Assembly (NCBI GenBank): GCA_029858255.1
Contig: JAOUFJ010000002.1
Span: forward strand, 138,637-202,636
Direction of reading: 5' to 3'
DNA length: 64,000 nucleotides
DNA from: a candidate division WOR-3 bacterium
GTDB taxonomy: Bacteria > Hydrothermota > Tepidihabitantia > SM23-42
The translations under genes and the position numbers were made by a program. Below the pieces are notes generated by a model that saw nothing but the letters and a program-made list of their open reading frames with translations, was not told where the DNA came from and did no database searches. Below, in pieces: positions 45,565 through 60,114 of this stretch. Position 1 is the first letter of the stretch; each line of letters begins with the position of its first letter.

Positions 45565-46599
45565 ATGACTGAAAGCAAGAAGAAAGGCATACTTGCCACG
45601 GTCAAATGCGCGGGCTGAGCTTCGAAACTCTCAGCTGCGCAGTTGGCGCAGGCACTAGCATATTTGCCATCGGTTGAGGATCCTGACCTGCTGGTTGGTA
45701 CGAATACCGCAGACGACGCAGGTGTCTACCGTCTGAACGACGAGCTTGCATTGGTTAAAACGATCGACATTCTCACACCCGTCGTCGAGGACGCGCACAC
45801 TTTCGGCATGATCGCTGCAGCGAACTGCATATCGGACATCTACGCAATGGGCGGTGATCCCAAGTTGGCGCTCAACATCGTTGGGTATCCGGGCATGGGT
45901 GACCCCAAAATCCTCGGTGAAATGCTAAAAGGCGGCAATGACAAGGCGCGGGAAGCCAGCGTCACGACCATCGGCGGTCACACCTTTGCCTCGCCCGAAG
46001 TTATGTATGGTCTTTCAGTTTTAGGCTATATCCATCCCCTGAAAATAATCACGAATGCAGGGGCAAAAACTGACGATGTAATTATCCTGACGAAACCAGT
46101 TGGCGTTGGCACCATAATCCAGGCAATGCTTTTGGATAAAGATGAGGGTATAGACATGAAATCCGTTATAGATTCAATGACCACATTGAATCGAGATGCG
46201 TCAATTGCTATGCGCGCGGCCGGTGCGCACGGTGCGACCGACGTCACGGGATACGGTCTTATCGGTCACCTCGTTGAAATGAGCGAAGCGAGCAAATCAG
46301 GTATCGAAATTTCGCTGCAAAAAATACCAGTACACAAAGGGGCCGTGGAAATTCTGGATCGAGGCATCTTCGAACCAGGTATCACGATGAATCTGAATTC
46401 TTTCAGCAACCGCGTGGATAAGGGCGATAGTGATTCAAATCTTGTCAATTTGATCTTCGGCTCGGAGACTTCTGGCGGGTTGATCATTGCCCTGCCTGAA
46501 GAACGGCTCGAAGTATTCAAACAAAACTACAAAAAAGATTTTGCTGTCATTGGCCGCGTGACAAAGGAAAACGCCGGCCGGGTGACACTGATCCCGTAA
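45565..46599 (+). CDS. selD: Selenide, water dikinase (selenophosphate synthetase), Sec-containing form. In-frame TGA at 45616-45618.
   Basis: ATG 45565 gives 'MTESKKKGILATVKCAG[U]ASKLS...LLVGTNTADDAGVY...AAANCISDIYAMGGDP...DVTGYGLIGHL'. The TGA aligns with Cys17/Sec of SelD 'GAGCGCK'. The ORF-track TTG start at 45643 lies downstream of the catalytic residue. Confidence 0.85.
45619..45651 (+). promoter_or_regulatory. SECIS-like stem-loops immediately 3' of the selD UGA
   Basis: GCTGAG-cttcgaaact-CTCAGC (45614-45635), then CTGCGC-AGTTG-GCGCAG (45635-45651). Loop with G-U about 23-27 nt from the UGA. Confidence 0.55.
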
Positions 46600-46905: not shown

Positions 46906-47145
46906 ATGCCAAAATATCTAATTACCCTTCCAAAAATGCCCAAAGAGCAAATAATCACATCTTGAAAGGCGGTTGTTACCGCTTCCGGAGGAAGCAAAAT
47001 CTGCATGGACAAAGCTTATATAGACGAAGAAAACAGTCAGGCGATCTGCTGTTGGAGTGCTCCTGACCGCAAAAGCCTCGAAGAATTATTCGCCAAGGCG
47101 AATGTGCACGTGGAATCAATAAGGAGCGTCACCGAATACAAATAA
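46906..47145 (+). CDS. Candidate small selenoprotein (79 codons, DUF4242-like C-terminal half), in-frame TGA at 46963-46965
   Basis: GGAGG RBS 5 nt before ATG. 'MPKYLITLPKMPKEQIITS[TGA]KAVVTASGGSKICMDKAYIDEENSQAICCWSAPDRKSLEELFAKANVHVESIRSVTEYK'. Hairpin AGGCGGT-TGTT-ACCGCTT just after the TGA. A terminator follows. Confidence 0.4.
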
Positions 47146-47166
47146 TATCCGCTTTGAGTCAATATT

Positions 47167-47196: not shown

Positions 47197-47633
47197 CATC
47201 CGACCCCTGACACCCTTTCCTACACAGTACCCCCGTGCAGTCTGTGTAAATCGAACCTGAACGCACAAAAAAATAGACCATTGACATCATTTCTCAATTG
47301 AGTATTCTCTATAGGATGAATTTGCATGTTCTGTACCACAACGGAGGAAAGATATGAAGTGCATCTTATCGCAACCCGGTCGGGTGCGAAATCATATCAA
47401 CCTCTATTTCATCAGAATAACCCCTTCAAAAACACAGTCACATAAATCAATGAATTTCTGCCTTTGTGGAGATGTTCATTCTTATGGTGGTAGAAAGTGA
47501 CTCTGCACAACCGAGGGCTCGGTCGAGTCCATTCACAACCACCCCACAAGAATCATCTAACAAATCCGTCAAAAACTGCACGCTGCTTAACAGCAGCCAT
47601 ACAAAATTATGATCAACAAAAGGAGGTTCGGTA

Positions 47634-47930
47634 ATGGCAAATAAATGGGATACGGTCGTAGGCACCACAGAGTACGCTGAAAATCTCGCGAGGATCAATA
47701 AAATAGCACAGGACAATGGGTACGTACTCAATCCCGATGAAGATAGACTCCGAAAAGTAATCGGCCTCATGACTATGAATAACACTGAATTCGGTAAATA
47801 TTATTGTCCATGTAAGCAAAACCACCCGCTGAATCCCCACAAGGATACCCCTTGTCCCTGTCCTGAAATGAAGAATGAGATCTTCAAAGACGGGCATTGT
47901 TTTTGCAGACTATTTTACAGAAGAACGTAG
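47634..47930 (+). CDS. Ferredoxin:thioredoxin-reductase catalytic-subunit-like protein (FTR-like CPC...CPC...CHC protein)
   Basis: 'YYCPCKQNHPLNPHKDTPCPCPEMKNEIFKDGHCFCRLF'. Strong RBS AAAGGAGG. Confidence 0.6.
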   Translation: MANKWDTVVGTTEYAENLARINKIAQDNGYVLNPDEDRLRKVIGLMTMNNTEFGKYYCPCKQNHPLNPHKDTPCPCPEMKNEIFKDGHCFCRLFYRRT

Positions 47931-47940
47931 GAGAAAGAAA

Positions 47941-49200
47941 ATGAACAATCATGAGCAAATGTGGAAGGAATTAGGTCTTGATGTCGAACTACACAAGGAA
48001 TTGCTCAGATCAATCGACAATACTTTCCAACAAACGGTCGGGAAGCAAAACGAACGCCCTGCTTCCATGGCATACTTCGATCATGTCCTACACGAGTCAC
48101 ACGGCGGCCGAGTTGCTGAACTCATCGAAGCCAGAAAAACAGGTAAAAAATTCATCGGCACATTCTGTATCTATGTACCCGACGAGATCGCCATGGCTGC
48201 TGATGCGATCCCAGTGGCGCTTTGCGGCGGAACACAATTCTCTATCCCGTATGGTGAGAAGATGTTTCCTAGGAACATTTGCCCGCTGATCAAATCAACA
48301 TTTGGACTCGCCCTCTCGAAAACCTGCCCCTACGGTCCGATCAAAGACCTGGGCGTTGGCGAAACTACATGCGATGCAAAAAAGAAGGCCTGGGATGTGG
48401 TAAATTTCCACGTTATGGAAGTCCCCCAGAAGAAGACCGATCTGGATTTCAAATTATGGTATCAGGCCGTTTTGGATTTTAAGAACAGGGTTGAAGAACT
48501 CACGGGGAAGAAGGTGGAAGCAAACAGATTGGCTGAAACAATAAATATCATGAATGACAAACGACGCGCGCTTCAGAAATTGAACGAGTATCGCAAATTG
48601 GACCCGCCGACTATCAGCGGTCTCGATGCGCTTGTCGTCATGCAGGCTGCACTCAACGACGATCCTGCCCGGTTCACTGAACATCTTATAGAACTCAACA
48701 ATGAACTCGATGACCGTGTGCACCGGAGTATTTCGCCATTCAGTAAAGGCGTCAAGCGTATTATGATATCAGGTTGTCCTTCTGTCATGGGTAACTGGAA
48801 AGTGCACTCACTGATAGAAAAATCAGGCGCTGCAATTGTTGTGGACGAAACGTGCACCGGGACGCGCTATTTCAACGATCTGGTCGAAGACGGAGCCCAC
48901 GAAATAGATAAACAACTCCGTGCGTTGGCCGACCGTTACATGAAGATAGATTGCGCCTGCTTCTCTCCGAACAACGAGCGTATGAAGTCGATCGAGAGAA
49001 TTGTCGATGACCGCACCGTCGACGGCGTCGTACAATATATTCTTCAATACTGTCACGGTTACAATGTTGAAGCAATAAGGGTCGCCGGCATTCTGAGCAA
49101 GAAAAGCATCCCCAATATCAAAATCGAAACCGATTACGCTGAAGAAGACATGGGACAACTCCGCACGCGTATCGACGCTTTTCTCGAGCAACTAAGTTAA
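47941..49200 (+). CDS. 2-hydroxyacyl-CoA dehydratase / benzoyl-CoA reductase BcrBC-like (HgdAB family, double-cubane-type) protein. Start moved to ATG 47941 after the FTR-like stop.
   Basis: Family-typical C-terminus '...GQLRTRIDAFLEQL'. Cys-rich N-terminal part. Confidence 0.65.
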   Translation: MNNHEQMWKELGLDVELHKELLRSIDNTFQQTVGKQNERPASMAYFDHVLHESHGGRVAELIEARKTGKKFIGTFCIYVPDEIAMAADAIPVALCGGTQFSIPYGEKMFPRNICPLIKSTFGLALSKTCPYGPIKDLGVGETTCDAKKKAWDVVNFHVMEVPQKKTDLDFKLWYQAVLDFKNRVEELTGKKVEANRLAETINIMNDKRRALQKLNEYRKLDPPTISGLDALVVMQAALNDDPARFTEHLIELNNELDDRVHRSISPFSKGVKRIMISGCPSVMGNWKVHSLIEKSGAAIVVDETCTGTRYFNDLVEDGAHEIDKQLRALADRYMKIDCACFSPNNERMKSIERIVDDRTVDGVVQYILQYCHGYNVEAIRVAGILSKKSIPNIKIETDYAEEDMGQLRTRIDAFLEQLS

Positions 49201-49212
49201 GGAGGAACAATA

Positions 49213-49989
49213 ATAACGGCGGGTATCGATATCGGCTCACGCACAATAAAAAGAGTCCTGATGGATGGAAATAAGGTCATTGATTACGCAATAACAGATA
49301 CTGGCGTCGATCTTCCAAAAAATTTCCAGAGCGTATTAGGCGACCAAAAATATGATGCCCTTGTCGCCACTGGATACGGAAGATATCTTGCACAATCGCA
49401 CCTTAATTGCCGTATCATTACGGAAATCAAAGCCTATGCAATCGGCGCTCATTTCCTATTCCCGGACGTGCGCACCATCCTCGATATAGGCGGACAGGAC
49501 AGCAAGGTAATACGTGTGCACGGCGGCAAGGTAAAGGAATTTGAAATGAATGATAAATGCGCCGCTGGAACAGGAAAGTTTCTCGAAGTCATGGCAACCA
49601 CACTTGGATACACTCTGGATGAATTCAGTACCGCTGCTGCAGAAGCCAATGAAGCCGTGGCAATCAATTCTATGTGCACGGTATTTGCCGAGTCTGAAGT
49701 CGTATCTCTGATATCACGCGGAGAAGAACGCGAGAATATCGCGCTCGGTTTACACCAGTCAATACTCAACCGCATTTTGTCCCTCATGGGCAGAACAGGA
49801 TTCGAGGACCCACTGGTTTTTGCCGGAGGCGTGGCAAAGAACGGATGCATGACCATGCTATTGAAAAAGAAATTGAATATGAAAATACTGTCACCGGCCG
49901 AACCCCAGATAGTGGGTGCGATAGGAGCCGCTTTAATGGCAAAACATAAAGACGATGGTCATGGTCCACAAAAAACGAAAGGAGAGTAG
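49213..49989 (+). CDS. HgdC/BcrAD-type ATP-dependent activase (CoA-substrate-specific enzyme activase, ASKHA). It probably starts at a non-ATG codon about 49213.
   Basis: 'GIDIGSRTIK' phosphate-1 motif is encoded upstream of the first ATG (49261). 'NDKCAAGTGKF' is the cluster-ligand motif. GGAGG at 49201. Confidence 0.7.
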   Translation: MTAGIDIGSRTIKRVLMDGNKVIDYAITDTGVDLPKNFQSVLGDQKYDALVATGYGRYLAQSHLNCRIITEIKAYAIGAHFLFPDVRTILDIGGQDSKVIRVHGGKVKEFEMNDKCAAGTGKFLEVMATTLGYTLDEFSTAAAEANEAVAINSMCTVFAESEVVSLISRGEERENIALGLHQSILNRILSLMGRTGFEDPLVFAGGVAKNGCMTMLLKKKLNMKILSPAEPQIVGAIGAALMAKHKDDGHGPQKTKGE

Positions 49990-49990
49990 C

Positions 49991-50782
49991 ATGAAGTACA
50001 TAAAGGACTTCACGATAAAAGACGTGCAGGACGTGTATGATGGTCCTGGAGGACTACTGTGGGAAGCAGTAATGGGAGAACAGATCCACTCAGGCGGTCC
50101 AGAGGCAACCGACGCACTGGCACAAAAGGTTGGGCTCAAGAAAGGTATGGTCGTATGTGACATATGCAGCGCTTTGGGTGCACCGGCACGCCACCTCGCC
50201 TCAAAATACGGTGTCAAGGTCAAAGGCGTCGATGCTACGAAAACGATGCTTGACAAGGCACGACAGCGCACAAAGGAAGCGAAACTCGAAGAACTCATAG
50301 AATACTATGAAGGCAATGCCCTGGACCTTCCTTTCAAGAAAGAAACCTTTGATGTAGTATGGGGTCAGGAAGCATGGTGCTATGTCACTGACAAAAACAG
50401 GCTTATCCAGGAAGCGCACCGCGTGCTCAAGCCAGGTGGCAAGATCGCCTTCACCGACTGGATAATCACTGGAGAGATATCAAAGCAAGAACTCGACCCA
50501 TTGCTCGAGACTATGGCTTTCCCGTACATGGAATCTTTTCAAGGCTATCAGGACCTGCTGAAACAGAACGGCTTTAATGTACTTGAAGCAAGAGACCAGA
50601 CCGACGAATATGCAGAGTGTTTTGATGATTACTACGAAAAAGTGCACGTTGATTTGAAACCTACGATTCTGGATAATTTTGGGAAGGACCTGTTCGACTT
50701 TGCCTCGAACCTGGTAACGATCTGGCAAAAAGCTTCTCACGAACATAAAGTCGGTAGGGGCCTTTTTATCGGACAAAAATAA
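49991..50782 (+). CDS. Class I SAM-dependent methyltransferase
   Basis: 'MVCDICSALGAPARHLA' motif I. 'VLKPGGKIAFTD' motif. Confidence 0.6.
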   Translation: MKYIKDFTIKDVQDVYDGPGGLLWEAVMGEQIHSGGPEATDALAQKVGLKKGMVVCDICSALGAPARHLASKYGVKVKGVDATKTMLDKARQRTKEAKLEELIEYYEGNALDLPFKKETFDVVWGQEAWCYVTDKNRLIQEAHRVLKPGGKIAFTDWIITGEISKQELDPLLETMAFPYMESFQGYQDLLKQNGFNVLEARDQTDEYAECFDDYYEKVHVDLKPTILDNFGKDLFDFASNLVTIWQKASHEHKVGRGLFIGQK

Positions 50783-50895
50783 CGAATACCGGGGCGTCTT
50801 CAATTTTACACAGAGGCACCCCGCAATTGAACCACGTCACGAAAAAAAGTCAGGCTAAACACTTGACTGGGGCATGACGTACCATTATTATACAC

Positions 50896-51543
50896 GTGTT
50901 ATCTGGAGGTTCATTGCTTGAATCGATAAAAGAAGCAGTCATAGAAATGGATGAGGAGAAAGTAAGTGAGCTGGTATCCAGTGCGCTGAACGAAAAGATC
51001 GAGCCGGTTGACATCCTTGAAAAAGGGTTGATCTCCGGAATGCAGGAGGTAGCATCGCTATTCGCACGCAAGGAATACTACGTGCCCGAAGTCCTACTCT
51101 GCTCTGAAGCATTCTACGCGGGATTCGATATATTAAAACCGCTCATCGGAAAATCATCCCGTAAGCCCAAAGCAAGAATTGTGTTTGGCGTAGTGGAAGG
51201 AGACATACACGATATCGGCAAGAATATCGTTAAGGTCATGATGGAAGCAGCAGGCTACGAAGTCGTTGACCTGGGACGTGACGTACCCGTTGAGGACTTC
51301 ATCAAGGCAGTAGACAAAGAAAGACCGGATATACTCGCATTGTCGAGCCTAATGACCACCACAATGACACTTATGGCTGATATACTAAAGGAATTGGAGA
51401 AACGCAACTTGCGTCGTGGATTAAAGGTCATCGTCGGAGGGGCACCGGTGAATGAGGAATTCGCTGCAAGTATCAAGGCCGATGGCTACAGCCCGGATGG
51501 ACCTTCTGCAGTTAGACTGATCGAGAAACTGCTCAGTGGATAG
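50896..51543 (+). CDS. Cobalamin-binding corrinoid protein (MtaC/MtbC-type, B12-binding domain with N-terminal cap)
   Basis: 'GDIHDIGKNIV' DxHxxG motif. Downstream 'SSLM' and 'VGGAP' motifs. Confidence 0.8.
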   Translation: MLSGGSLLESIKEAVIEMDEEKVSELVSSALNEKIEPVDILEKGLISGMQEVASLFARKEYYVPEVLLCSEAFYAGFDILKPLIGKSSRKPKARIVFGVVEGDIHDIGKNIVKVMMEAAGYEVVDLGRDVPVEDFIKAVDKERPDILALSSLMTTTMTLMADILKELEKRNLRRGLKVIVGGAPVNEEFAASIKADGYSPDGPSAVRLIEKLLSG

Positions 51544-52468
51544 AATCTCTGCCGTCATAAATCATCAAAAATATTTTGCCGTATTTCCGATGGTCTGCGC
51601 TGACCACGGCGCGTATCTACTAAACCTCAAATTCAAGGAGGTTGCAGAAGATGGAGAAAAACTCGCCCATGTCCTGCAGTACACCTATGAACTCTATGGC
51701 TACGATATGGTGCTGGTTTTCTCGGATCCCTACGTTGAAGCACAGGCGCTTGGCTGCCCGGTCGAACTTGACCCTTACCCCGCTCTGATCGGATCTGCAA
51801 CGGTGCATTCTGTCGATCGCACTGAAGAGATCATCCATGCGGCGGACATTCTAAGGAGCAGCATCGACGTTCCGATATTCGTTTCCATCAAAGGTCCCTT
51901 CACTCTCGCTGCCTTCCTCGATGGCATCGAGCATTATCTGAAGATAGTTTTGAAAAAAGAAACAGAGGCCTCGCAGCTCTTGCAGGAAGCACTACAATAC
52001 CAACTGGGATATTTGGAGAGAATTTTGTCCGTCGGTGTCAACATTATGATCGGAGACCCCCTCGCATCATCGAGCGTAATATCGCCCGCAATATTCCTGA
52101 AATATGCATTCACAGGGCTAAAGACGATGGTGGCAAAAGCAAAAACTAGCGGCGCAATCGTTGGCGTCCACATCTGTGGAGACGTAGGCGCAATATCAGA
52201 ATATCTTGATGACCTGGACGCTGATATCCTGAGTATAGAAGGCATCAACATTCGGACAGAGACTTTAAAAATGGGTGGTGTAGGAACCGATACGATATTG
52301 AACGGAGACCTGAAATGCATGAGATCAGAGGTGGAAAATGCGTTCAAAAATGAATTCATAATCCTGTCCACAGCGTGCGACGTTCCACCCCACACAGAGC
52401 CGGCAAATATCAAGGCCATGCTCCGATTCGCCCGTGAGTGCGGCCGTGAATATGGAGTACAAAAATGA
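51536..52468 (+). CDS. URO-D-family methyltransferase (MtaA/MtbA/CmuA-like, methylcobamide methyltransferase type)
   Basis: Uroporphyrinogen-decarboxylase-like fold signature regions. Adjacent to the corrinoid protein. Confidence 0.65.
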   Translation: MDRISAVINHQKYFAVFPMVCADHGAYLLNLKFKEVAEDGEKLAHVLQYTYELYGYDMVLVFSDPYVEAQALGCPVELDPYPALIGSATVHSVDRTEEIIHAADILRSSIDVPIFVSIKGPFTLAAFLDGIEHYLKIVLKKETEASQLLQEALQYQLGYLERILSVGVNIMIGDPLASSSVISPAIFLKYAFTGLKTMVAKAKTSGAIVGVHICGDVGAISEYLDDLDADILSIEGINIRTETLKMGGVGTDTILNGDLKCMRSEVENAFKNEFIILSTACDVPPHTEPANIKAMLRFARECGREYGVQK

Positions 52469-53451
52469 AGTTGATCGGCTATGCGTGCTCTTACATACCA
52501 GTCGAAATACTCTCCGCTACTGGATTGCAGCCATACCGACTCCTCCATGGCGATATAGACCTTTCGAAGCAAGGGGAACGCTTCGTAAGGGTAGATGCTT
52601 GTCCCATGGTGAAATCAAATCTCGCTTATGCCATCCAGAATGCAGACAAATTCGCCGCGCTGATTGGTACAACCGGGTGCGACATGTCTCGCAGAATGTT
52701 CGATGTCCTGAGCGAACAGACGAACATACCAGTGTATATGGTGAATAACCCGAGAACCGACAACCCTGCGATGTATAATGATGAAATTGACTGGCTGGTA
52801 AAACAACTCGAACACTTTTCCCATATGAAATTCACCGACGAGATGATCCGGGAAGAAATATCCAAATGGGAAGGAATGCGCGCAGAATTACGGATCATCG
52901 ACGAAAAGAGAGCAGCCCACCCGTCACTCGTATCGACGACAGACTTCCATAGCGTAATGGCCGGCTATCATAAAGGGTCGTTTGATGAGAATGTCACTTT
53001 CTGTCAGAACCCCTCAGATAGACCAAGGTTATACTTATTAGGCAGCGCTATCACGTACGAGGCAAATCATATCCTTCAATTGATAGAAGAAAATCTCCGT
53101 ATTGTAGGTGATTTCAATTGCGGACTTTCTCGACCCCTTCACATCAAGATCGAAGGACAGAGTATCGACGGCATCAAGAAAGCGTATTACAACCAACCGC
53201 CGTGCCTGTACAAAAGACCGCATCAGAAGTACTACGACTTCGTAGCCATGGAGATTGCCAGACTGAGATGCATCGGTATAATTGCATGGACACTGGATTA
53301 CTGCGATGTTCATGAGTTCGAACTGCAGAAGATCGAAAAGGTATTCAACCTCCCGGTATTAAGGATACGGAGTGATTTTTCCTATCAGGGTAACAGCCAG
53401 TTGAGGACACGAATCGAGGCCTTTGCGGAGATGCTATGTTCGAGGATCTAA
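52465..53451 (+). CDS. HgdB/BcrC-like (2-hydroxyacyl-CoA dehydratase family) protein
   Basis: 'MKLIGYACSYIPVEIL' N-terminus. '...QLRTRIEAFAEML' C-terminus. Confidence 0.65.
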   Translation: MKLIGYACSYIPVEILSATGLQPYRLLHGDIDLSKQGERFVRVDACPMVKSNLAYAIQNADKFAALIGTTGCDMSRRMFDVLSEQTNIPVYMVNNPRTDNPAMYNDEIDWLVKQLEHFSHMKFTDEMIREEISKWEGMRAELRIIDEKRAAHPSLVSTTDFHSVMAGYHKGSFDENVTFCQNPSDRPRLYLLGSAITYEANHILQLIEENLRIVGDFNCGLSRPLHIKIEGQSIDGIKKAYYNQPPCLYKRPHQKYYDFVAMEIARLRCIGIIAWTLDYCDVHEFELQKIEKVFNLPVLRIRSDFSYQGNSQLRTRIEAFAEMLCSRI

Positions 53452-54827
53452 TTCCGCAGAAGATCAGTCTCAAGGAGTGGAGCAGACAGTTCCGTATGCT
53501 CGACGATTCGCAAATAAAAAAGTACAGGTATTACACTAATGATGAGTGGGGTCATTATCTGTCTCCGCCGGCAACGTTCATGGTCTACGGTGCCAGGGAA
53601 CTCAGAAAATTGAAATTCGACAATTCACTAGCCGCGCTCAGGCTCTGGGGGTTTACGCTCAATGAATCTGAAAGACTGTTCAGGGCGCGGCAGAGCGGTA
53701 AACGCATAATCGCAACAATGGGCGACCTTGGGACGATACCCGTTATCGCCATGGCGTTTCCTGACTGTATTCCGTTCTACCCCGACTGCACATGGTGGAC
53801 GCCGTTCTTCAACGAATCTACGGTGCTTCTCGATAAGGCGAGTGAACTCGGCACGCCCGAAGCCAGTTGTTTTGTACGTTCAACACTTGCTGCTTTTTAC
53901 AAAATGGCATACTTCCCAAAACCGGATCTGTTGTTTGCATCAACTGGCGCATCCTGCGATGATTACTCGTGTATCATGCAGATGGTTGCAGACCTCGGTT
54001 ATGAATTGAACTGGCTCGAAATCCCCTATCGCAGGAAATTGCGGGACTACCACGCGGAGGAAAAATATTCTGGAACAGAGCATGGTTTTCAATATCCCGA
54101 ACGTTTCGAAACATACTTGGTGAATGAATACAAGCGCGTCTGGCAAAAAATGCAGGCGCTGACCAATATTGGTGATCTCGAAAAACTCAGAGAAAGTATC
54201 AAAAAGAACAACAGACTGCGCCGATTGGTAGATGATATAAAAAACCTTACAACTGAGGCCGACACCGCACCATTTCCCGGTCTTGAGATGATGGTCATAG
54301 AATTCGGCAATCTATATGGCTACGCGGATACCGATGAATGGTTGGACATCCTGGAGATGATCAAAGAAACGGTCACCGGTCGTGTCAAAAAAGGAATCGG
54401 AGTCCTTCATTCGGATGCGATACCACTTGCGTGGGTCACCCCTACCGCAGACCCATTGCTGCTAAATATTGTTGAGGACATGGGCGGCCGTGTCGTGGCG
54501 ACCGAATATGTCATCAACCAGGCACTTACCGAGATCGAGGAAGATATCGAACCCTTCCGCGCCCTTGCCAGGTCGTTCATGAACGCCTCCCTCATCGGTT
54601 CAACCGAAGAGAGAATCCGTCATATTTCCGAAAACATTGCTTCCGGCAGGATCGCAGGAGTCATCATCACCAACATGTTGGGTTGTTCCCATTGTTCAAT
54701 GGAGACTAGGCTAATCGAACAAAATTTGAAAAACGTGCCCGTGCTCGCGATCGACATCCCTGCGCCACTGGGAATAACCGAACAGCTCAAGACACGAATC
54801 GCTGCCTTCATCGAGATGCTGAAATGA
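53436..54827 (+). CDS. HgdA/BcrB-like (2-hydroxyacyl-CoA dehydratase family) protein
   Basis: '...EQLKTRIAAFIEML' C-terminus. 463 aa. Confidence 0.65.
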   Translation: MFEDLIPQKISLKEWSRQFRMLDDSQIKKYRYYTNDEWGHYLSPPATFMVYGARELRKLKFDNSLAALRLWGFTLNESERLFRARQSGKRIIATMGDLGTIPVIAMAFPDCIPFYPDCTWWTPFFNESTVLLDKASELGTPEASCFVRSTLAAFYKMAYFPKPDLLFASTGASCDDYSCIMQMVADLGYELNWLEIPYRRKLRDYHAEEKYSGTEHGFQYPERFETYLVNEYKRVWQKMQALTNIGDLEKLRESIKKNNRLRRLVDDIKNLTTEADTAPFPGLEMMVIEFGNLYGYADTDEWLDILEMIKETVTGRVKKGIGVLHSDAIPLAWVTPTADPLLLNIVEDMGGRVVATEYVINQALTEIEEDIEPFRALARSFMNASLIGSTEERIRHISENIASGRIAGVIITNMLGCSHCSMETRLIEQNLKNVPVLAIDIPAPLGITEQLKTRIAAFIEMLK

Positions 54828-55855
54828 GCGATATTCTGACCCCACGTGAAAGATTTGGACTGCTGGTGATCGATGAAAAACCCGACCGCTGCAATACAAT
54901 ACCATTAATCACATCGCACGCCGCCACGGTCAAAGGTATGAAGCTCAGAGATTATTACACGAATGGTGAGAACATGGCGCGTGCGCAGATAGCAGCAATT
55001 GAAAAATACGGGCACGATGCGATATCAATTTTCTCAGAAGTAGGTATCATCGCTGAAGCAATGGGGACGGAATTCGAATATCCAGAGAACGACCTGCCGA
55101 TCCAGAGGATACCGGCCCTCCAGAAACAGGATATCGAAGAAATCGAGATACCGATCCCGACCTCAGATGCGAGACTCCCGGTGTATCTCGATGCGATTGA
55201 ATATGCTTACGACGCACTCGGCGACAGAATCCCCATACTGGCCTACATTCCTGCTCCATTCACGACCGGAATGATGCTCTCCGACCCGAACAAATTTCTC
55301 ATCCAAACAATCAAGGAACCGGATCATGTCGCGGCGGTCATGGAGAAATCCCTCGCAGCGGCAATCGAATTATGTTACCATGTCATAGATGTCGGTGGAC
55401 TGCCCATTATCGTTGATCCCCTTGCGTCGTCGAGCGTCATTAGCCCCAAAGCATATCAACAATACGCTCTCCCCTATGAAAGAAAACTCATCGATTTTCT
55501 ACACCGTTACGACCTCGATGTTATACTACATATTTGTGGAGACACTACGCCAATTATCCATATCCTTCCGGAGACGCACGCCGACCTTATCAGTATTGAC
55601 CGTGTGAGCCTAGCGGATACAATTGAAAAATTATCTATGAAAATTCGCGTGATCGGCAACTATGACACATCGCTGCTCGCCTTTTCATCCCCGGACGTCA
55701 TAGCACGCGAAGTAAAAGAAATGGTGAAGCTCTCGATGAATGCGCACAAGGGTTACATCGCAGCAACAGGCTGCGAGGTTCCCATCCACGCCCCTTTCGA
55801 AAACGTGACAGCTTTCATAAATGCAGCGAAGGAGAACGGATGGTATTGGGATTAG
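54824..55855 (+). CDS. Second URO-D-family (MtaA-like) methyltransferase
   Basis: Paralogous to 51536..52468. 'DPLASSSVISP' is shared between both. Confidence 0.65.
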   Translation: MSDILTPRERFGLLVIDEKPDRCNTIPLITSHAATVKGMKLRDYYTNGENMARAQIAAIEKYGHDAISIFSEVGIIAEAMGTEFEYPENDLPIQRIPALQKQDIEEIEIPIPTSDARLPVYLDAIEYAYDALGDRIPILAYIPAPFTTGMMLSDPNKFLIQTIKEPDHVAAVMEKSLAAAIELCYHVIDVGGLPIIVDPLASSSVISPKAYQQYALPYERKLIDFLHRYDLDVILHICGDTTPIIHILPETHADLISIDRVSLADTIEKLSMKIRVIGNYDTSLLAFSSPDVIAREVKEMVKLSMNAHKGYIAATGCEVPIHAPFENVTAFINAAKENGWYWD

Positions 55856-56562
55856 ACGTTGGGTCCAGCTACACAAAAGGAATTGTGTTTGACGGCCGGA
55901 TAAGGGACAAGATCGTTTTCAAAACATCATTCAAGCCAAAACTGGCGGTCGAGAGAGCACTGAATGAACTCCGAGGCTACGACAGCATAGTCGCTACTGG
56001 ATTCGGACGGGAGCTCGTCACGACGGCCGACAAGACGATAACGGAAATCACGGCATTTGCCAAAGGTGCATCTTATTTCGAACCTCAGCTTCGAACTATC
56101 ATCGATATCGGCGGGCAGGATAGCAAGATCATCAAAGTCAAAGATGGGCGCGTCGACCGATTTGTCATGAATGACCGCTGTGCGGCTGGGACCGGAAATT
56201 TCGTTGAGAAAATCGCGCAAGCCCTTGACCTAAGCCTGGCCGAATTCGGCGAGTTGGCCGTGCATGCAGACCGTGCTGAAATCATTGATTCACTTTGCGT
56301 GGTCATGGCCGAAACAGAGATTCTTAGTCTCGTTGGAGAAGGTAAACGGCTTGAAGACATCGTTGCCGGGGTGTGCGACGCGCTCGTTCGGCGAATCGAT
56401 GGTATAGGCAGCCAGATAGGCATTGAGGAACCAATATTGTTCTGCGGCGGCGGCGCCCTTAATCCCGGTCTTGTCAAATCGATGAGACGCATATTCAAGG
56501 AAGTCACCATTCCAGAGTATCCCCAATATGTCGGGGCAATTGGCGCTGCACTGTCGCTCTGA
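55840..56562 (+). CDS. Second HgdC/BcrAD-type ATP-dependent activase
   Basis: 'LGLDVGSSYTKG' and 'NDRCAAGTGNF'. ~240 aa. Confidence 0.75.
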   Translation: MVLGLDVGSSYTKGIVFDGRIRDKIVFKTSFKPKLAVERALNELRGYDSIVATGFGRELVTTADKTITEITAFAKGASYFEPQLRTIIDIGGQDSKIIKVKDGRVDRFVMNDRCAAGTGNFVEKIAQALDLSLAEFGELAVHADRAEIIDSLCVVMAETEILSLVGEGKRLEDIVAGVCDALVRRIDGIGSQIGIEEPILFCGGGALNPGLVKSMRRIFKEVTIPEYPQYVGAIGAALSL

Positions 56563-56657: not shown

Positions 56658-58058
56658 GTGAAGGATGCCATGAAAACTAAAGAAATACTGAGAAATATTC
56701 CATCGGTGGATAAAATCCTTAACTGGGATGAAATAAAGGAATCTCTCAAAATCCTCAACCAAGACCATATAACCAGGATCATACGCGATAACGTAGAAAA
56801 CTACCGAAAACTTCTGATTGCCGGTGAAAAAATCGACGATAGTCGTTTGAAAAAAGCAATCTTAGCCGATATCCAGGATCTTATCACTCCCTATTTCTGC
56901 TATGCGGTCAATGCGCTCGGTATTGTTTTGCATACGGGATTGGGCCGTGCACCGTTTAACAAACACATTGCAGAAGTCATCCATGATATGTCCATGGGCT
57001 ATTCACGGTTGCAAATCGATGATGATGGAAAGCGGGCTGACCGCTACAAGAAGATCAATCGCTTGCTTCAGATCTTAACCGGGGCCGAAGCCGGGATCAT
57101 CGTCAACAACAACGCTGCCGCAACAATGCTCATCCTCAGTGCAATGGCAAAAGGCAAAGAGGTAATCGTGTCAAGGGGTCAACTCATTGAGATCGGTGGA
57201 GCATATCGTATTCCAGACATAATGGCGCAGAGCGGTGCGATAATGCACGAAATAGGCACAACCAATAGAACACATCTTAAGGACTATACAGGAGCAATAA
57301 ATGAGAACACAGGTGCGATACTGCGCGTGCACCAGTCAAACTACCGTATTATTGGCTTCACCAAAGAAGTCCCATTGGATGAGCTTGTCGAACTGGGGAG
57401 AAAACACAATATCCCGGTTATCGATGACCTGGGAAGCGGAGCGCTGATCGATTTTGCCGCATATGGACTGCCCAAAGAACCTATGGTACAAGAGAGCATC
57501 GCCACGGGAGCTGACGTAGTCTGTTTCAGCGGCGATAAACTGATCGGCGGACCACAATGCGGAATTATTATCGGTAAGAGGCAACATATAGAGTTAATAA
57601 AGAAAAACCCGCTTACCCGGGCGCTGAGATGCGATAAACTAACTAATGCTGCATTAGAAGCCACGCTTCAAATGTTTCTGCTCAAAGAGGAAGATTTAGT
57701 ATTAAATCACGCCGTTTTGGGCATTTTACTTAAACCATTAGATGAAATAAAATCTCGCGCGAAGCGTTGTGCGAGAGGTCTGAAAGCTGCATTTGGCAGC
57801 ATCCTCGAGGTATCTGTACGCTCGGGCGTCAGTGAGATTGGCGGAGGTTCACTCAGTACAGAACAGCTGCCCACCTATCTGGTGGCTATCAAATCACAAG
57901 ATATCGCGGCAAGCGATCTGGCACATGCCCTGCGGCGATACCAAACACCGGTTTTTACCAGGGTTGCCGAAGACAGTGTTCTCCTCGACTTCCGCACCGT
58001 TGTGAAGGGCGAGGAAAAGATAATACTTGAAGCCTTCAAGACAGTCCTCAAAATCTGA
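56658..58058 (+). CDS. selA: L-seryl-tRNA(Sec) selenium transferase
   Basis: 'IIVNNNAAATMLILSAMAKGKEVIVSRGQLIEIGGAYRIPD...HEIGTTNRTH...FSGDKLIGGPQCGII' aligns with SelA, including the PLP-lysine region. Confidence 0.9.
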   Translation: MKDAMKTKEILRNIPSVDKILNWDEIKESLKILNQDHITRIIRDNVENYRKLLIAGEKIDDSRLKKAILADIQDLITPYFCYAVNALGIVLHTGLGRAPFNKHIAEVIHDMSMGYSRLQIDDDGKRADRYKKINRLLQILTGAEAGIIVNNNAAATMLILSAMAKGKEVIVSRGQLIEIGGAYRIPDIMAQSGAIMHEIGTTNRTHLKDYTGAINENTGAILRVHQSNYRIIGFTKEVPLDELVELGRKHNIPVIDDLGSGALIDFAAYGLPKEPMVQESIATGADVVCFSGDKLIGGPQCGIIIGKRQHIELIKKNPLTRALRCDKLTNAALEATLQMFLLKEEDLVLNHAVLGILLKPLDEIKSRAKRCARGLKAAFGSILEVSVRSGVSEIGGGSLSTEQLPTYLVAIKSQDIAASDLAHALRRYQTPVFTRVAEDSVLLDFRTVVKGEEKIILEAFKTVLKI

Positions 58059-58191: not shown

Positions 58192-60114
58192 GTGATGGAT
58201 ACGAGAAAGAAACACATCGTTATCGGTACCGCGGGACACATTGATCACGGAAAGAGCGCTTTGATAAAAGCACTCACCGGTGTCGACCCGGACCGGCTCA
58301 AGGAGGAGAAAGAGCGAGGTATGACCACAGACCTCGGCTTTGTTTTTTACAGCGCCGATGTAACTATCATCGACGTACCGGGTCATGAAAAATTCGTTCG
58401 GCATATGGTAGCCGGAGCATCGACTATTGACTTCGTGATCTTCGTGGTCGCCGCTGACGATGGAGTAATGCCACAAACGCACGAACACCTTGAGATTCTT
58501 AAACTACTCGGAATAAAAAAGGGTATCGTTGTAATTACAAAGAAAGACCTTGTTGAGAAAGACATGCTGGAAGTAGTAATAGACGATGTGAAGCGTGCCC
58601 TGACTAATTCTTTTCTGGAGAATGCGCCGATCATTAAGGTTTCAAATATCACCAAAGACGGTATCGAAGAACTCAGGAAATGCCTCGACGAGCTGATCAC
58701 TCAGATCGAGCCAAAAACCGACCGTGGTATATTCAGGATGCCTATTGACCGCCGGTTCGTGATAAAAGGATTTGGCACCGTGGTTGCGGGCACGGTTTTA
58801 TCAGGCAAAGTCAAAATAGGGGATACTGTCGAGCTACTACCCGAGAAAAAAAGTGTCAAAGTCAGGGGGATCGAAGTCCATAATGAAAAAGTAGATACCG
58901 TGGGCACTGGATTCCGCGCAGCCATCAACCTTGTAGGCGCTGACAAAGATGAGATCGACCGCGGTGATGTGCTCGCCCAGCCCGGTTTTTATGAACCATC
59001 GGAATACCTGAATGCATCTTTATACCTATTGTCTTCCGCTGGCAAGCCACTGAAGAATTTCAGCAGATTGCGGATACACGTCGGGACAAATGAAATATTC
59101 GGCCGCGTTGTGTTACTCGATAAAAAAACACTCGGACCAGGGCAAAAAGCAATGGTTCAGTTCAGATTGGAATCCCCGGCTGTCTGCGACATCAACGATA
59201 ATTACGTAATAAGATCCTATTCGCCACAAATGACCATTGGTGGCGGCCTCATAATCGAGCCCAAAGCGACAAAAGCAAAGGGGTTTGATGAGGAACTGAT
59301 CAGCCATTTGCAGCGCATGGAAGTCGGTGAACCCGTTGTGATCGTAGAAGAGGATCTATTGGCGAATTTCGATCTTCCAAGGAAACCCGAGGAAATCGCT
59401 CATGATGTTAACCTCCCCCTCGCAGAGACGAAAAACCTCATAGAAAATCTGATACAGCAGGGAAAGATAATATGTCTTGACGAAAAACGCGGGTTTTACT
59501 ATCACCAGAAGAACCATGAAAAACTGAAGGCGCAAATCGTCGAAAATCTTGGCACCTACCACAAGGCGAATCCGACCGGCGTCGGGCTTTCCGCCCTTGA
59601 ACTATTGAAGAATATCAGCCGCGGTCTCGATAAAGTTCTCCTGGACCGTACACTCGCAAAAATGGAAAAGGAGAAAATCGTACGCCTCACGCCAGACGGA
59701 AAGATCAATCTATTCGAGCACAAAGTAGTGGTCGACAAAGACCTCGATGCCACGATCAAAAAAATCGAGCAGCTCTTCATTGAAGGCGGCTATAAACCGC
59801 CCTCTTACCAGGATGTGGTTACCCGCAACCTAGATCCTGAGAACGTCGTAAAGAAAGCGTACCGTTATATGCTCGATACCGGGCTCCTGGTAAATGCCGG
59901 CGAGGGCATTGTCTTGCACCAGAATTATGTTAAAGCAGCAGAGCAAAAACTCATCGAATTCTTGAAGACAAATAAGGAAATAAGAGTCTCCCAGTTCCGC
60001 GACCTGCTCGATGCAAGCCGCAAGTTTGTCCTGCCGCTTCTGATATATTTCGACACGCGCGGTGTCACGATCAAACGAGGCGACGTAAGGGTGTTGGGAC
60101 AAAAATACCGCTAA
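58192..60114 (+). CDS. selB: Selenocysteine-specific elongation factor
   Basis: G-domain 'GTAGHIDHGKSAL', 'DVPGHEKF', 'TKKD'. ~640 aa with C-terminal winged-helix extension. Sits next to selA. Confidence 0.9.
   Translation: MMDTRKKHIVIGTAGHIDHGKSALIKALTGVDPDRLKEEKERGMTTDLGFVFYSADVTIIDVPGHEKFVRHMVAGASTIDFVIFVVAADDGVMPQTHEHLEILKLLGIKKGIVVITKKDLVEKDMLEVVIDDVKRALTNSFLENAPIIKVSNITKDGIEELRKCLDELITQIEPKTDRGIFRMPIDRRFVIKGFGTVVAGTVLSGKVKIGDTVELLPEKKSVKVRGIEVHNEKVDTVGTGFRAAINLVGADKDEIDRGDVLAQPGFYEPSEYLNASLYLLSSAGKPLKNFSRLRIHVGTNEIFGRVVLLDKKTLGPGQKAMVQFRLESPAVCDINDNYVIRSYSPQMTIGGGLIIEPKATKAKGFDEELISHLQRMEVGEPVVIVEEDLLANFDLPRKPEEIAHDVNLPLAETKNLIENLIQQGKIICLDEKRGFYYHQKNHEKLKAQIVENLGTYHKANPTGVGLSALELLKNISRGLDKVLLDRTLAKMEKEKIVRLTPDGKINLFEHKVVVDKDLDATIKKIEQLFIEGGYKPPSYQDVVTRNLDPENVVKKAYRYMLDTGLLVNAGEGIVLHQNYVKAAEQKLIEFLKTNKEIRVSQFRDLLDASRKFVLPLLIYFDTRGVTIKRGDVRVLGQKYR

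Follow-up and report, generated by a model that had tools for sequence, protein, structure and literature searches.

Clusters in which genes for MtaA-like methyltransferases and corrinoid proteins lie near those of the double-cubane cluster protein (DCCP), its reductase (DCCP-R) and the sel genes have already been described by bioinformatics (Kountz & Balskus 2023, PMC10418091; Haft & Gwadz 2022, bioRxiv 10.1101/2022.07.06.499078), a description which the original prediction for the locus studied here had missed. DCCP/DCCP-R and sel genes lie in the type 1 mlp clusters, and ClMlp2 methylates selenide in vitro (PMC10418091). DCCP itself is an ATP-driven reductase whose natural substrate is not established (PMC9351452); 955 of its 970 strong hits are found in assemblies which encode SelD (bioRxiv 10.1101/2022.07.06.499078). 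SdmABC of Methanococcus is needed for the use of dimethylselenide and is induced by selenium starvation (Niess & Klein 2004, as cited in PMC11097638). The nitrogenase-like methylthio-alkane reductase MarHDK is found near "non-selenium" type-1 mlp clusters, for which sulfur or methionine salvage has been proposed (PMC10418091). Similar clusters are known from computer analysis, and no characterised pathway matches the gene combination presented here, as the original prediction had stated.

We have studied a stretch of 64,000 nt (the 64-kb window) from a candidate division WOR-3 bacterium. Its operon brings together four parts. The first is a corrinoid methyl-transfer set, in which the carrier g5 is combined with g6 and g9, two distinct MtaA-like methyltransferases with Zn(His-Cys-Cys) sites. 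The second is an ATP-driven reductase of double-cubane descent, encoded by three conserved genes (g7, g8, g10). The SAM methyltransferase g4, which is PEAMT-like and accompanies the reductase genes, is the third. The fourth consists of accessory redox proteins, namely a canonical DCCP and DCCP-R pair (g2, g3) and the FTR-like g1. Judged by sequence, the corrinoid part resembles the type 1 mlp clusters and SdmABC of Methanococcus voltae and M. maripaludis. Common to them and to our cluster are several His-Cys-Cys MtaA-like URO-D methyltransferases beside one monomeric corrinoid protein, occurrence in anaerobes, the lack of an H4folate methyltransferase and a frequent linkage to selD, selA, selB and DCCP/DCCP-R. 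RACE, found in most orthologous loci of our cluster, is a further likeness which the window does not share. Compared with these systems, our core has a predicted HGD-D heteromer with its own ATPase, the HGD-D pair being inserted between the two MtaA-like genes, and the SAM methyltransferase belongs to the conserved unit. The hosts also differ: they are WOR-3, Planctomycetota and Calditrichota, phyla which the text of PMC10418091 does not mention.

The operon and its corrinoid genes

Pfam and NCBIfam confirm the ten co-directional, tightly packed genes and the families originally predicted at 47634-56562. All are on the + strand, with intergenic gaps from g1 to g10 of 10, 9, about 1 (or -35), 113, -8, -4, -16, -4 and -16 nt. 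Their domains are FeThRed_B (g1), HGD-D (g2, g7 and g8), BcrAD_BadFG (g3 and g10, which match the acyl-CoA dehydratase activase model), class I SAM methyltransferase (g4), B12-binding_2 plus B12-binding (g5) and URO-D (g6 and g9). None of the ten is a selenoprotein. They are preceded on the + strand by a promoter-like site and by a conserved 5' leader some 325 nt long (together 47281..47633). The site, found by a promoter scan, is TTGACA-16-TATTCT at 47281-47308. In the five genomes compared the leader has blocks with 100% nucleotide identity; nested hairpins are predicted in it and it has no match in Rfam.

The first gene, g1 (47634..47930; PF02943, 52 bits), codes for a protein like the FTR catalytic subunit or a ferredoxin:disulfide reductase. 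Its motifs are CPC...CPC...HCFC: the third one had been misread as CHC. Its top solved relatives are 4tpu and 7pwe, and each of its six cysteines is kept in 11-12 of 12 orthologues. It shares PF02943 and the CPC...CPC...CxC cluster and disulfide motif with the FTR-like ferredoxin:disulfide reductase (PDB 4tpu) and the FTR catalytic subunit, but it is a stand-alone domain of 98 residues, with neither variable subunit nor rubredoxin domain. It is weakly related to the double-selenoprotein model of the FtrB family (38 bits, cut-off 160).

The SAM methyltransferase g4 (49991..50782) is a PEAMT/SDMT-like class I enzyme, which matches Methyltransf_11 and related Pfam families. Among solved structures it is closest to phosphoethanolamine N-methyltransferases (5wp5, 1e-24). 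In the nearest relatives of the window it has about 90% identity, the highest among the cluster proteins. It accompanies g7/g8 even at loci without corrinoid genes, which are organized as S-7-8-A (L069/L070) or S-D-8-a (L064).

The corrinoid methyl carrier g5 (50896..51543) has domains PF02607 and PF02310 and the motif DIHDIG (DxHxxG); it scores 205 bits with TIGR02370, slightly under the cut-off of 215, and all 54 sequences compared have its His105. The two URO-D proteins, g6 upstream (51536..52468, 127 bits) and g9 downstream (54824..55855, 236 bits), are closest to MtaA/CmuA, and MtaA 4ay7 is the nearest solved relative of both (5e-22 for g9). The zinc ligands H212/C214/C281 of g6 are invariant (41/41 sequences), those of g9, H236/C238/C317, nearly so (68-70 out of 70). 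The two positions correspond to two clean paralogue lineages, with the g6 group separate. In all loci with a downstream flank g9 is found directly 3' of g8, with the exception of the corrinoid-less loci L064 and L069/L070. His-Cys-Cys zinc sites are typical of S-methyltransferases and should prefer substrates with S or Se (Kountz & Balskus, PMC10418091); those of g6 and g9 are compatible with sulfur as well as selenium.

The gene order is far more conserved than expected by chance: a random juxtaposition, which the original prediction had considered, is not what the neighbourhood search found. The core consists of SAM methyltransferase, corrinoid protein, MtaA-like protein, in many cases RACE, two HGD-D proteins, MtaA-like protein and HgdC-type ATPase; the order C-m-(R)-7-8-M-A is syntenic in 63 species-level genomes, with protein identities down to 37-50%. 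A canonical RACE (PF14574, PF17651, Fer2) lies directly between g6 and g7 in 49 of the 61 informative orthologous loci, alongside g7/g8/g10. No RACE homologue was detected by tblastn in the 64-kb window, and RACE is also missing at the locus in 12 related genomes; five of these genomes are complete chromosomes. The clade of the window appears to have lost it, which leaves the standard scheme incomplete here.

Reductases of the double-cubane lineage

The operon has three HGD-D proteins and two ATPases. The first pair is canonical. The seven-cysteine pattern of DCCP (C76, C95, C114, C144, C305, C338, C371) is present in g2 (47941..49200), which scores 445 bits with NF040772 (cut-off 350) and matches DCCP structures 7yyl and 6eno with E = 5e-123. 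Its start is most likely the ATG at 47941, which has an RBS ahead; therefore g1 and g2 do not overlap. The DCCP reductase g3 (49210..49989; TIGR00241, 250 bits) is an HgdC-type ATPase with a non-canonical ATA start at 49210, preceded by AAGGAGG. The ATG at 49261 given by the ORF finder drops the conserved nucleotide-binding N-terminus AGIDIGS, and the ATA position is ATG in four orthologues (L016, L018, L023, L046). Its invariant C117 and C156 correspond to the DCCP-R cluster ligands C115 and C152 (PMC9351452). Having the seven-cysteine motif and the two cluster cysteines of the ATPase, g2 and g3 are orthologues of DCCP and DCCP-R from Carboxydothermus hydrogenoformans (PDB 6eno, 7yyl; PMC9351452).

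The nature of the second group is different. DCCP is the nearest solved relative of both g7 (52465..53451; HGD-D 192 bits; 3e-19) and g8 (53436..54827; HGD-D 146 bits; 3e-11), but with NF040772 they reach 148 and 80 bits, far under the family cut-off of 350. The DCCP-derived g7 lacks the N-terminal 60 residues or so and retains six of the seven conserved cysteines (C8, C46, C72, C219, C247, C280), which are kept in 58-61 of 61 orthologues and also in outgroups. The conserved cysteines of g8 are C111, C118, C145, C174 and C420; of the four cysteines that DCCP has at the first position and in the C-terminal part, it lacks three. It is a degenerate partner of g7, and its family is rare: only 37 of 1.84 billion representatives match at E<=1e-30. 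Some fusion proteins join a g8-like domain to a seven-cysteine DCCP-like domain. These fusions, the translational overlap and the invariable adjacency of the two genes predict that g7 and g8 form a heterodimer, with the full set of cluster ligands in g7 only, while DCCP is a homodimer. Their dedicated HgdC-type ATPase is g10 (55840..56562; TIGR00241, 237 bits), which also has the two cluster cysteines of DCCP-R (C114 and C153, invariant in 48/48 sequences) and occurs at loci without g2/g3. The invariant cysteines of g7, g8 and g10 fall at predicted cluster-ligand positions; together these proteins seem to make up a reductase of their own within the DCCP lineage. The operon offers a route to testing what such ATP-driven reductases do.

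Other ATP-driven systems are comparable in part. The 2-hydroxyacyl-CoA dehydratases (HgdAB/HadBC with HgdC/HadI) and class I benzoyl-CoA reductases (BcrABCD/BzdNOPQ) belong to the same superfamilies: HGD-D proteins with an ASKHA "archerase" ATPase which has a bridging [4Fe-4S] cluster. The logic of their alpha/beta heteromers is similar in g7/g8, but the cysteine pattern of the latter is DCCP-like, not HAD-like. RACE/RamA activases also deliver low-potential electrons coupled to ATP and are associated with corrinoid methyltransferases; g3 and g10 are a different class of protein, of HgdC type. MarHDK is an ATP-driven metallo-reductase beside Mlp/corrinoid genes. It is not homologous to g7/g8/g10 (NifHDK fold versus HGD-D/ASKHA), but it may serve as an analogy for the reductive cleavage of C-S or C-Se bonds, which by the same analogy would yield methylthiol or methylselenol.

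Selenium genes and proposed function

The operon is found within a selenocysteine locus, with selD upstream and selA, selB and tRNA-Sec downstream. This context had been missed in the original prediction. On the + strand, selD (45565..46599; selenide, water dikinase with AIRS and AIRS_C domains; TIGR00476, 296 bits, cut-off 125) itself encodes Sec: we read directly an in-frame TGA at 45616-45618, in the context KCAGUASK. The promoter scan gave a perfect TTGACA-16-TATAAT at 45531 for this gene and another perfect consensus promoter at 56625-56652 for selA (56658..58058, +; selenocysteine synthase; PF03841, 472 bits). The Sec-specific elongation factor selB (58192..60114, +) has GTP_EFTU, SelB-wing_3 and Beta-barrel_SelB domains, and tRNA-Sec (selC) is found on the - strand at 61852..61945 (ARAGORN anticodon TCA; Rfam RF01852, 75 bits).

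We consider it about evenly probable that the operon combines corrinoid methyl transfer with ATP-driven reductases of the DCCP lineage in order to free selenide for SelD; selenide salvage is its likely role. Methylated selenium compounds, and probably oxidised or polymeric ones too, would be the sources from which the system releases selenide, for use by the Sec-containing SelD whose gene lies just upstream. One MtaA-like enzyme (Mlp) would transfer the methyl group from CH3-Se-R to Co(I) of g5 and the other would hand it to a thiol acceptor. The reductases would deliver electrons of very low potential to a reaction of the selenium substrate or product. This could be the reductive cleavage of a C-Se, Se-Se or Se-S bond or the conversion of Se(0) to a reduced form, in parallel with MarHDK near the non-selenium mlp clusters. 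The substrate of g7/g8 in this scheme is entirely inferred. Of the two roles originally suggested, one was a reductive step, driven by ATP, with the methyl donor or acceptor as its target; it fits the evidence and is the one that we prefer. Corrinoid activation would not be the primary job of the reductases, because RACE co-occurs in 49 loci and 7-8-A modules exist without corrinoid genes; in most relatives Co(II) would be reactivated by the canonical RACE.

Among the alternatives, a metabolism of methyl-sulfur compounds survives best, but it is unlikely. Methanethiol, DMS or methylthio-compounds would be demethylated for sulfur or methionine salvage, and the sel neighbours would be an accident of gene order in some lineages. 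The zinc sites of g6 and g9 are like those of the S-methyltransferases MtaA, MtbA and MtsA (PMC10418091), a weak Sulf_transp match (YedE/YeeE-like) is found within some clusters, and C-S reductases like MarHDK accompany a subset of type-1 mlp clusters (PMC10418091). Sel genes are also absent within 10 kb in about two thirds of the fully flanked orthologous loci: the selenium link could be a single ancient gene order, kept in part of WOR-3 without functional coupling. On the other hand, selD and/or selA-selB are found at 10 kb or less from the cluster in 19 of the 63 orthologous loci, far more than a chance placement of three genes in some 2 Mb of genome would give. The linkage is present in both deep branches, and in the distant clade selD directly precedes the corrinoid gene; our operon in the window is flanked by Sec-encoding selD on one side and by selA-selB-tRNA-Sec on the other. 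The family of g2 is, moreover, nearly restricted to genomes which encode SelD (bioRxiv 10.1101/2022.07.06.499078).

Less probable again is that g10 with g7/g8, or g3 with g2, reduces Co(II) of g5 to Co(I) with ATP. The original prediction had proposed such HgdC chemistry in place of RACE/RamA. As a general explanation it fails, since full-length RACE lies beside g7/g8/g10 in most lineages, and therefore the ancestral and general function of the module is a different one; in outgroups the module is also found without any nearby corrinoid gene (S-7-8-A in L069/L070, 7-8-M-A in L066). It stands as a minority possibility for the RACE-less clade of the window, as a replacement of the lost RACE. None of the best 120 of 6846 homologues of the nearest RACE could be traced to the five complete chromosomes, but a distant paralogue elsewhere in the genome is possible, as those 120 are what the check covered. 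RACE lacks its N-terminal [2Fe-2S] domain in L006 and L009, the two loci with RACE whose g8 has the highest identity to that of the window, and also in L016, which suggests a stepwise takeover of the electron-entry function; L007, L008 and L010 keep only (S)-C-7-8-M-A. Against this, no HgdC-type system is known to reduce a corrinoid, and RACE and archerases are treated as separate classes (PMC9351452).

The SAM methyltransferase g4 is not accounted for by a purely demethylating scheme. The system might run in the opposite direction: g4 and the corrinoid system would methylate Se, Te or As which the ATP-driven reductases have reduced, in order to volatilise or detoxify it or to make a methylated product. 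The high identity of g4 in the nearest relatives, its presence with g7/g8 at corrinoid-less loci and its matches below threshold with models for ArsM-type and selenoprotein methyltransferases agree with this, and the assay of ClMlp2 was run in the methylating direction (PMC10418091). We find it improbable: the nearest solved relatives of g4 are N-methyltransferases of PEAMT/SDMT type, not ArsM, no ars, efflux or resistance genes are nearby, and a position between selD and selA-selB favours supply of selenium over its removal. Selenols can be methylated directly by SAM and do not need a corrinoid.

Finally, the cluster might encode an ordinary pathway with a 2-hydroxyacyl-CoA dehydratase or a class I benzoyl-CoA reductase, acting for instance after O-demethylation of methoxy-aromatics; this is largely refuted and highly improbable: besides the HGD-D and BcrAD_BadFG domains there are weak matches to HadC and BzdN/BcrC models, but all dehydratase and benzoyl-CoA reductase equivalog scores are far under cut-off (for instance HadC 118 vs 700, BzdN 92 vs 454), DCCP is the top match of all three HGD-D proteins, each HGD-D unit has one ATPase gene instead of the two subunits BcrA/BcrD, the zinc sites are His-Cys-Cys instead of the carboxylate-containing ones of O-demethylases (PMC10418091), and the CoA-transferase or ligase genes by which the original prediction would have recognized such a pathway were not found in the ten genes or the scanned flanks, nor were 2-hydroxyacid dehydrogenase or dienoyl-CoA hydratase domains; for relatives, the search for all these domains covered a handful of sampled loci.

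Other neighbouring genes

Two more genes are found upstream of the operon, both on the + strand. Between selD and the operon there is a small ORF of 79 codons (46907..47145) with an in-frame TGA at 46964-46966, a candidate selenoprotein. It is weakly SCO4226-like (PF14026 26 bits, under the cut-off of 28.5) and is kept in the same position in four orthologous loci (L003, L004, L005, L036). A GC-rich hairpin lies 3' of it, at about 47168-47190; the orthologues of this hairpin are terminated by a T-run. Upstream of selD we find an Omp28-domain surface protein (43810..45468; Pfam Omp28, InhA-like_MAM, FlgD_ig and Por_Secre_tail) with a T9SS C-terminal sorting domain. Similar genes are present upstream of selD or of the cluster in L003-L005, L040, L042, L045-L048, L056, L060 and L067: it is a recurring neighbour with a possible accessory role.

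The operon, its conservation and its reductases

The region 47634–56562 has ten co-directional genes on the + strand, as found from the ORF listing and its translation, and the gaps between them are all small or negative. The domains proposed in the original prediction were all recovered with Pfam and NCBIfam. The first gene, g1, has an FTR-like FeThRed_B domain; g2, g7 and g8 belong to the HGD-D group; g3 and g10 are BcrAD_BadFG proteins of the HgdC type, which match the acyl-CoA dehydratase activase domain model; g4 is a class I SAM methyltransferase. The corrinoid protein g5 has B12-binding_2 and B12-binding domains (PF02607 and PF02310), with the motif DIHDIG present. The other two genes, g6 and g9, are URO-D proteins: their top NCBIfam matches are MtaA/CmuA and methylcobalamin:CoM methyltransferase models. 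A selenocysteine locus surrounds the operon, with selD upstream and selA, selB and tRNA-Sec downstream, a context which the prediction had left out.

The relatives of g8 form a compact family: none of the best 120 matches is below 60% identity, and those which have a name are mostly WOR-3 or 'Stahlbacteria'. A pattern scan with one genome per species gave 63 loci, in WOR-3 and a few Planctomycetota, which we compared by tblastn with all the proteins of the window. Their core order is g5, g6, an extra gene, g7, g8, g9 and g10, with g4 usually just upstream. The prediction presupposed a conserved neighbourhood, and these 63 loci have one. The conserved order and the near-invariant functional residues rule out a chance juxtaposition: the operon is real and strongly conserved. 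Other genes are variable additions: the FTR-like gene is found in 13 loci, a double-cubane cluster protein (DCCP) with its reductase (DCCP-R) in 8, selD and/or selA-selB in 19, and there is also an Omp28-like surface protein. L017, L028 and L031 have a further pair of genes (3377–5515 in L028), which separates the SAM methyltransferase from the corrinoid gene; one of the pair has a weak, sub-threshold match to Sulf_transp, which is YedE/YeeE-like. YedE is a proposed selenium transporter (PMC5322559).

The protein g2 has 445 bits on the DCCP model NF040772 (cut-off 350) and E = 5e-123 to the solved structures 6eno and 7yyl. Proteins of this class are ATP-driven and can reduce acetylene, hydrazine and azide. 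The cysteines of g2 at 76, 95, 114, 144, 305, 338 and 371 have spacings of 18/18/29/160/32/32, to be compared with the published 19/18–19/29/166–170/32–34/32 (Haft & Gwadz, bioRxiv 10.1101/2022.07.06.499078). Judged by its sequence, g2 is a bona fide DCCP, and g3 is its reductase. Both g3 and g10 are ASKHA ATPases (archerases) like DCCP-R: they have 250 and 237 bits on TIGR00241 (cut-off 125), adjoin their partner genes and have two invariant cysteines for a [4Fe-4S] cluster (C117/C156 in g3, C114/C153 in g10), which match the DCCP-R ligands C115/C152.

The pair g7 and g8 is different. Their closest solved relative is also a DCCP (3e-19 and 3e-11), but on NF040772 they reach only 148 and 80 bits, under the cut-off of 350, and g8 has few equivalent cysteines, so that g2 alone is a member of the class. 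Six of the seven DCCP cysteines are kept in g7 and the C95 position is replaced; the six are conserved in 58–61 of the 61 orthologues, and in outgroups as well. By our own reasoning an [8Fe-9S] cluster needs six ligands, three per cubane, which is the number that g7 would offer. In g8 the equivalents of C114, C144 and C371 are kept together with a family-specific CxPFYPxC pair, which gives five near-invariant cysteines. Both proteins thus appear to derive from DCCPs, yet they stand outside the curated definition. Relatives of g8 with E ≤ 1e-30 are rare: only 37 were found among 1.84 billion representative proteins. Two proteins of 867 and 861 aa (P0290 and P0294) have a g8-like N-terminal half fused to a canonical seven-cysteine DCCP-like C-terminal half, which is Rosetta-stone support for a partnership of g8 with a DCCP-type subunit. 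The overlap of g7 and g8, their constant adjacency and these fusions support a g7:g8 heteromer served by a g10 homodimer.

The FTR-like protein g1 has 52 bits on PF02943 (cut-off 22) and the motif CPC-X13-CPC-X12-CFC with a His before the last pair; the third element is HCFC and not CHC, as had been read before. No gene for the FTR variable subunit was found near g1. Its nearest solved relatives are the FTR-like ferredoxin:disulfide reductase 4tpu and the FTR subunit B 7pwe, with E about 1e-7.

Published mlp clusters and a proposed role in selenium salvage

The closest solved relative of g6 and g9 is MtaA (4ay7), and their His-Cys-Cys ligands align with its HxC...C motif. All 41 sequences compared for g6 share its zinc ligands H212/C214/C281, and 68–70 of the 70 compared for g9 share H236/C238/C317; the histidine of the DxHxxG motif of g5 (His105) is invariant too. 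The two positions form clean paralogue groups, with 28% identity between them and 46% and 58% within them. On MtbA models from NCBIfam g9 has 117 bits and g6 has 67 bits; in Table S1 of the study of mlp gene clusters (MGCs), Mlp3 is nearer than Mlp2 to MtbA (PMC10418091). The paralogue groups and these scores would be in line with a pair made of one Mlp2-clade and one Mlp3-clade protein, as type 1 MGCs have. Since both MtaA-like proteins (Mlps) have His-Cys-Cys zinc sites, a methoxy-aromatic O-demethylase was rejected. An HgcAB-like mercury methylation system was also discarded: g5 is of the MtaC/MtbC B12-binding type, its best NCBIfam matches are methyltransferase corrinoid-protein models, and the absence of any ferredoxin-type domain among the ten genes counts against it.

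These features resemble those of type 1 MGCs, which contain several MtaA-like His-Cys-Cys proteins, a corrinoid protein and the corrinoid reductive activase RACE, without an H4folate methyltransferase (Kountz & Balskus, PMC10418091). Many of them have a DCCP and DCCP-R, several have selA, selB or selD, and 87% of the host species encode the selenocysteine machinery (PMC10418091). The window is similar in having at least two MtaA-like methyltransferases (g6 and g9) akin to the soluble CoM methyltransferases, with zinc sites of the sulfur/selenium type, and a corrinoid protein (g5); neither the ten proteins nor those of the flanking genes have a pterin-binding H4folate methyltransferase domain. 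Type 1 MGCs have been tied to SdmABC, which Methanococcus voltae requires for the use of dimethylselenide (PMC10418091); a homologous locus of M. maripaludis is strongly induced on selenium starvation (PMC11097638). Among strong DCCP matches, 955 of 970 are in assemblies which encode SelD, for a reason that was left open (Haft & Gwadz, bioRxiv 10.1101/2022.07.06.499078). The original prediction saw no characterised pathway here; the combination was already on the bioinformatic record. The operon is less novel than it had seemed, because an association of corrinoid proteins, DCCPs and selenium has been published; it keeps its value because a search for what DCCPs reduce in nature can start from a defined, compact system.

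Four things appear to be new: a heteromeric pair of DCCP descent which has its own ATPase and is part of the core of the cluster, the link of this pair with a methyltransferase similar to those of phosphoethanolamine (PEAMT), its occurrence in WOR-3, Planctomycetota and Calditrichota, and the graded loss of RACE. Our literature search gave no paper on any of these four subjects, and nothing relevant on 'DVU1556' or on WOR-3 together with selenium.

We propose that the cluster salvages selenide for SelD by demethylation of methyl-selenium compounds plus an ATP-driven reductive step, a reading for which the chances are evenly balanced. The Mlp and corrinoid part would demethylate the compounds, with a thiol as the acceptor of the methyl group; electrons of very low potential from the ATP-driven reductases would then serve a reaction of either the selenium substrate or the product. 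This reaction could be a reductive C-Se cleavage, by analogy with the MarHDK reductases near mlp clusters unrelated to selenium, or else a reduction of Se-Se or Se-S bonds or of Se(0); bonds of the disulfide or diselenide type would be a fitting target for the FTR-like g1. The identity and conserved coupling of the parts are well supported and the selenium assignment moderately so; the chemical step of g7 and g8 is a guess. A more specific proposal is tentative and rather unlikely: g7, g8 and g10 would be an unrecognised heteromeric archerase-driven reductase of the double-cubane type, which cleaves or reduces organic or elemental selenium (a C-Se or Se-Se bond, or Se(0)) and works with corrinoid demethylation and the SAM methyltransferase. 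If true, it would give the DCCP family its first natural substrate class and explain its near-absolute co-occurrence with SelD. Metabolism of methyl-sulfur compounds, to which the type of the zinc sites would also apply, is an unlikely alternative for a cluster placed among selenocysteine genes.

Two questions meet at this locus: what the physiological substrate of DCCPs is, a question that PMC9351452 leaves, and by what route anaerobes regain selenium which is methylated or in some other unavailable form. In the window a heteromer of DCCP descent is part of a corrinoid cluster's core and is flanked by selD and selA-selB; the heteromer is conserved in 63 species. This narrows the substrate search to a short list of selenium and sulfur compounds, and the locus names the exact proteins to express.

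RACE and the remaining alternatives

The extra gene between g6 and g7 is a canonical RACE with Fer2, Raco_middle and RACo_C_ter domains, present in 49 of the 61 loci which cover the interval. The window differs from them and from type 1 MGCs: no RACE was found in the operon or in the 64 kb of the window, where tblastn with two RACE queries gave a best E = 0.4. No window protein has the RamA-type domains (PF14574, middle or Fe-S), and a Pfam scan of ten other ORFs, including six of the largest, was also negative. RACE is equally absent in L003, L004, L005, L036, L032, L011 and L014; L007, L008 and L010 have neither RACE nor g6, and in L038 and L041 it has been lost independently. In the two RACE-bearing loci nearest to the window by g8 identity (L006 and L009), and in L016 too, the N-terminal [2Fe-2S] domain is missing from RACE. 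These short forms, such as L006 7772–8941, have about 390 aa instead of 466–511, and many similar ones are found in public data. Among the best 120 homologues of the nearest RACE, beyond which there may be more distant paralogues, none is on a contig with the length of one of the five complete RACE-less chromosomes.

The first candidate role in the original prediction was that HgdC chemistry replaces RACE. It cannot hold in general: the HGD-D pair and its ATPase normally coexist with RACE. There are also loci with the pair in which corrinoid genes are absent. In a Calditrichota contig g7, g8, g9 and g10 are found alone between housekeeping genes. Two contigs have only g4, g7, g8 and g10, with no corrinoid or Mlp genes within 8 kb upstream and 5 kb downstream, and a Planctomycetes contig has the SAM methyltransferase, a DCCP-like gene, a g8-like gene and the ATPase. 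The invariant unit is g7-g8-ATPase, accompanied by the SAM methyltransferase, the downstream Mlp or both; in WOR-3 this unit is combined with the corrinoid protein, the second Mlp and RACE. That the archerase system activates the corrinoid, limited to the RACE-less clade, would agree with the missing or shortened RACE in the window and its nearest relatives and with the five complete chromosomes, but the coexistence with RACE elsewhere and the units without corrinoid genes make it quite unlikely. The g7/g8/g10 reductase might nevertheless do both in that clade, acting on selenium and also reactivating the corrinoid. The series of full-length RACE, RACE without the ferredoxin domain and no RACE is a comparative test of such a takeover.

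The methyltransferase g4 is similar over its full length to phosphoethanolamine and sarcosine/dimethylglycine N-methyltransferases (1e-24). It has a Tyr at what we take to be the position of the catalytic His of PfPMT, adjoined by an invariant Cys. Arsenic methylation was considered and rejected: g4 is weakly ArsM-like but nearer to PEAMT and SDMT, and there are no ars genes nearby. The Mlp ClMlp2 transfers the methyl group of methylcobalamin onto selenide (PMC10418091); that the whole cluster operates in this methylating direction seems improbable.

A CoA-ester dehydratase or reductase, which the original prediction had named as a finding that would speak against it, can be practically dismissed. 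Scores on the NCBIfam models are far under the cut-offs: 118, 65 and 34 bits on HadC (cut-off 700), 92 and 30 on BzdN (454), 66 and 25 on BcrC (421). The search for CoA-transferase and CoA-ligase domains was negative for the ten genes, for the flanks in the window and for a handful of sampled related loci. An acyl-CoA dehydratase or benzoyl-CoA reductase was rejected on both grounds.

Start codons, leader and neighbouring genes

No in-frame TGA is found in the ten genes: every frame is open to its listed stop. The most likely start of g2 is ATG 47941, after a ribosome binding site, so that g1 and g2 do not overlap. The start of g3 is peculiar. The region of its conserved N-terminus (49201–49215) has no ATG, GTG or TTG; ATA 49210 is found directly after AAGGAGG. 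The ATG chosen by the ORF finder drops the conserved AGIDIGS N-terminus, and gene callers give 242 aa. At the same position the orthologues have ATG in L016, L018, L023 and L046, ATA in L004, and ATC in L013 and L039. This non-canonical start is probably a deliberate weak initiation.

Sigma-70-like promoters with perfect consensus precede selD and selA; weaker ones are found at 47281, before the long leader of g1, and at 50863, before g5. From g1 to g10 the + strand gave no terminator-like site. The 5' leader (47309–47633, + strand, about 325 nt; 47281–47633 together with the promoter-like site before it) has several blocks which are 100% identical in five genomes, whose proteins are only about 67–91% identical. 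RNAalifold predicts nested hairpins, one of them sequestering GGAGG. An ORF of 48 codons is also possible, but its wobble positions are invariant. The leader motifs are restricted to the clade of the window. The leader is a candidate for a new cis-regulatory RNA. A known upstream riboswitch was discarded: an Rfam scan of 44000–63000 (E ≤ 1) gave only tRNA-Sec and no match in the leader.

Upstream, selD starts at ATG 45565 (+ strand; 296 bits on TIGR00476) and its codon 18 is an in-frame TGA (45616–45618), in the context KCAGUASK. ORF finders and the public gene call begin it at 45643 (318 aa), after the Sec codon. A small ORF between selD and the operon (46907–47145, + strand) has an in-frame TGA at 46964–46966. 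It is weakly SCO4226-like/DUF4242 (26 bits, under the cut-off), is kept in this place in L003, L004, L005 and L036 and has a hairpin downstream; it is a candidate for an unannotated selenoprotein.

A secreted or surface protein with an Omp28 domain and a T9SS tail is found at 43810–45468 in the window, and in L045 (1213–3798), L047 (2522–5087) and L067 (1604–3403). In each of the two deep branches of the family it recurs directly upstream of selD or of the cluster, and it may serve in uptake or binding. The selenium locus is preceded, at a distance of a few kb, by a gene for an IS200-like Y1 transposase (40143–40802, - strand).
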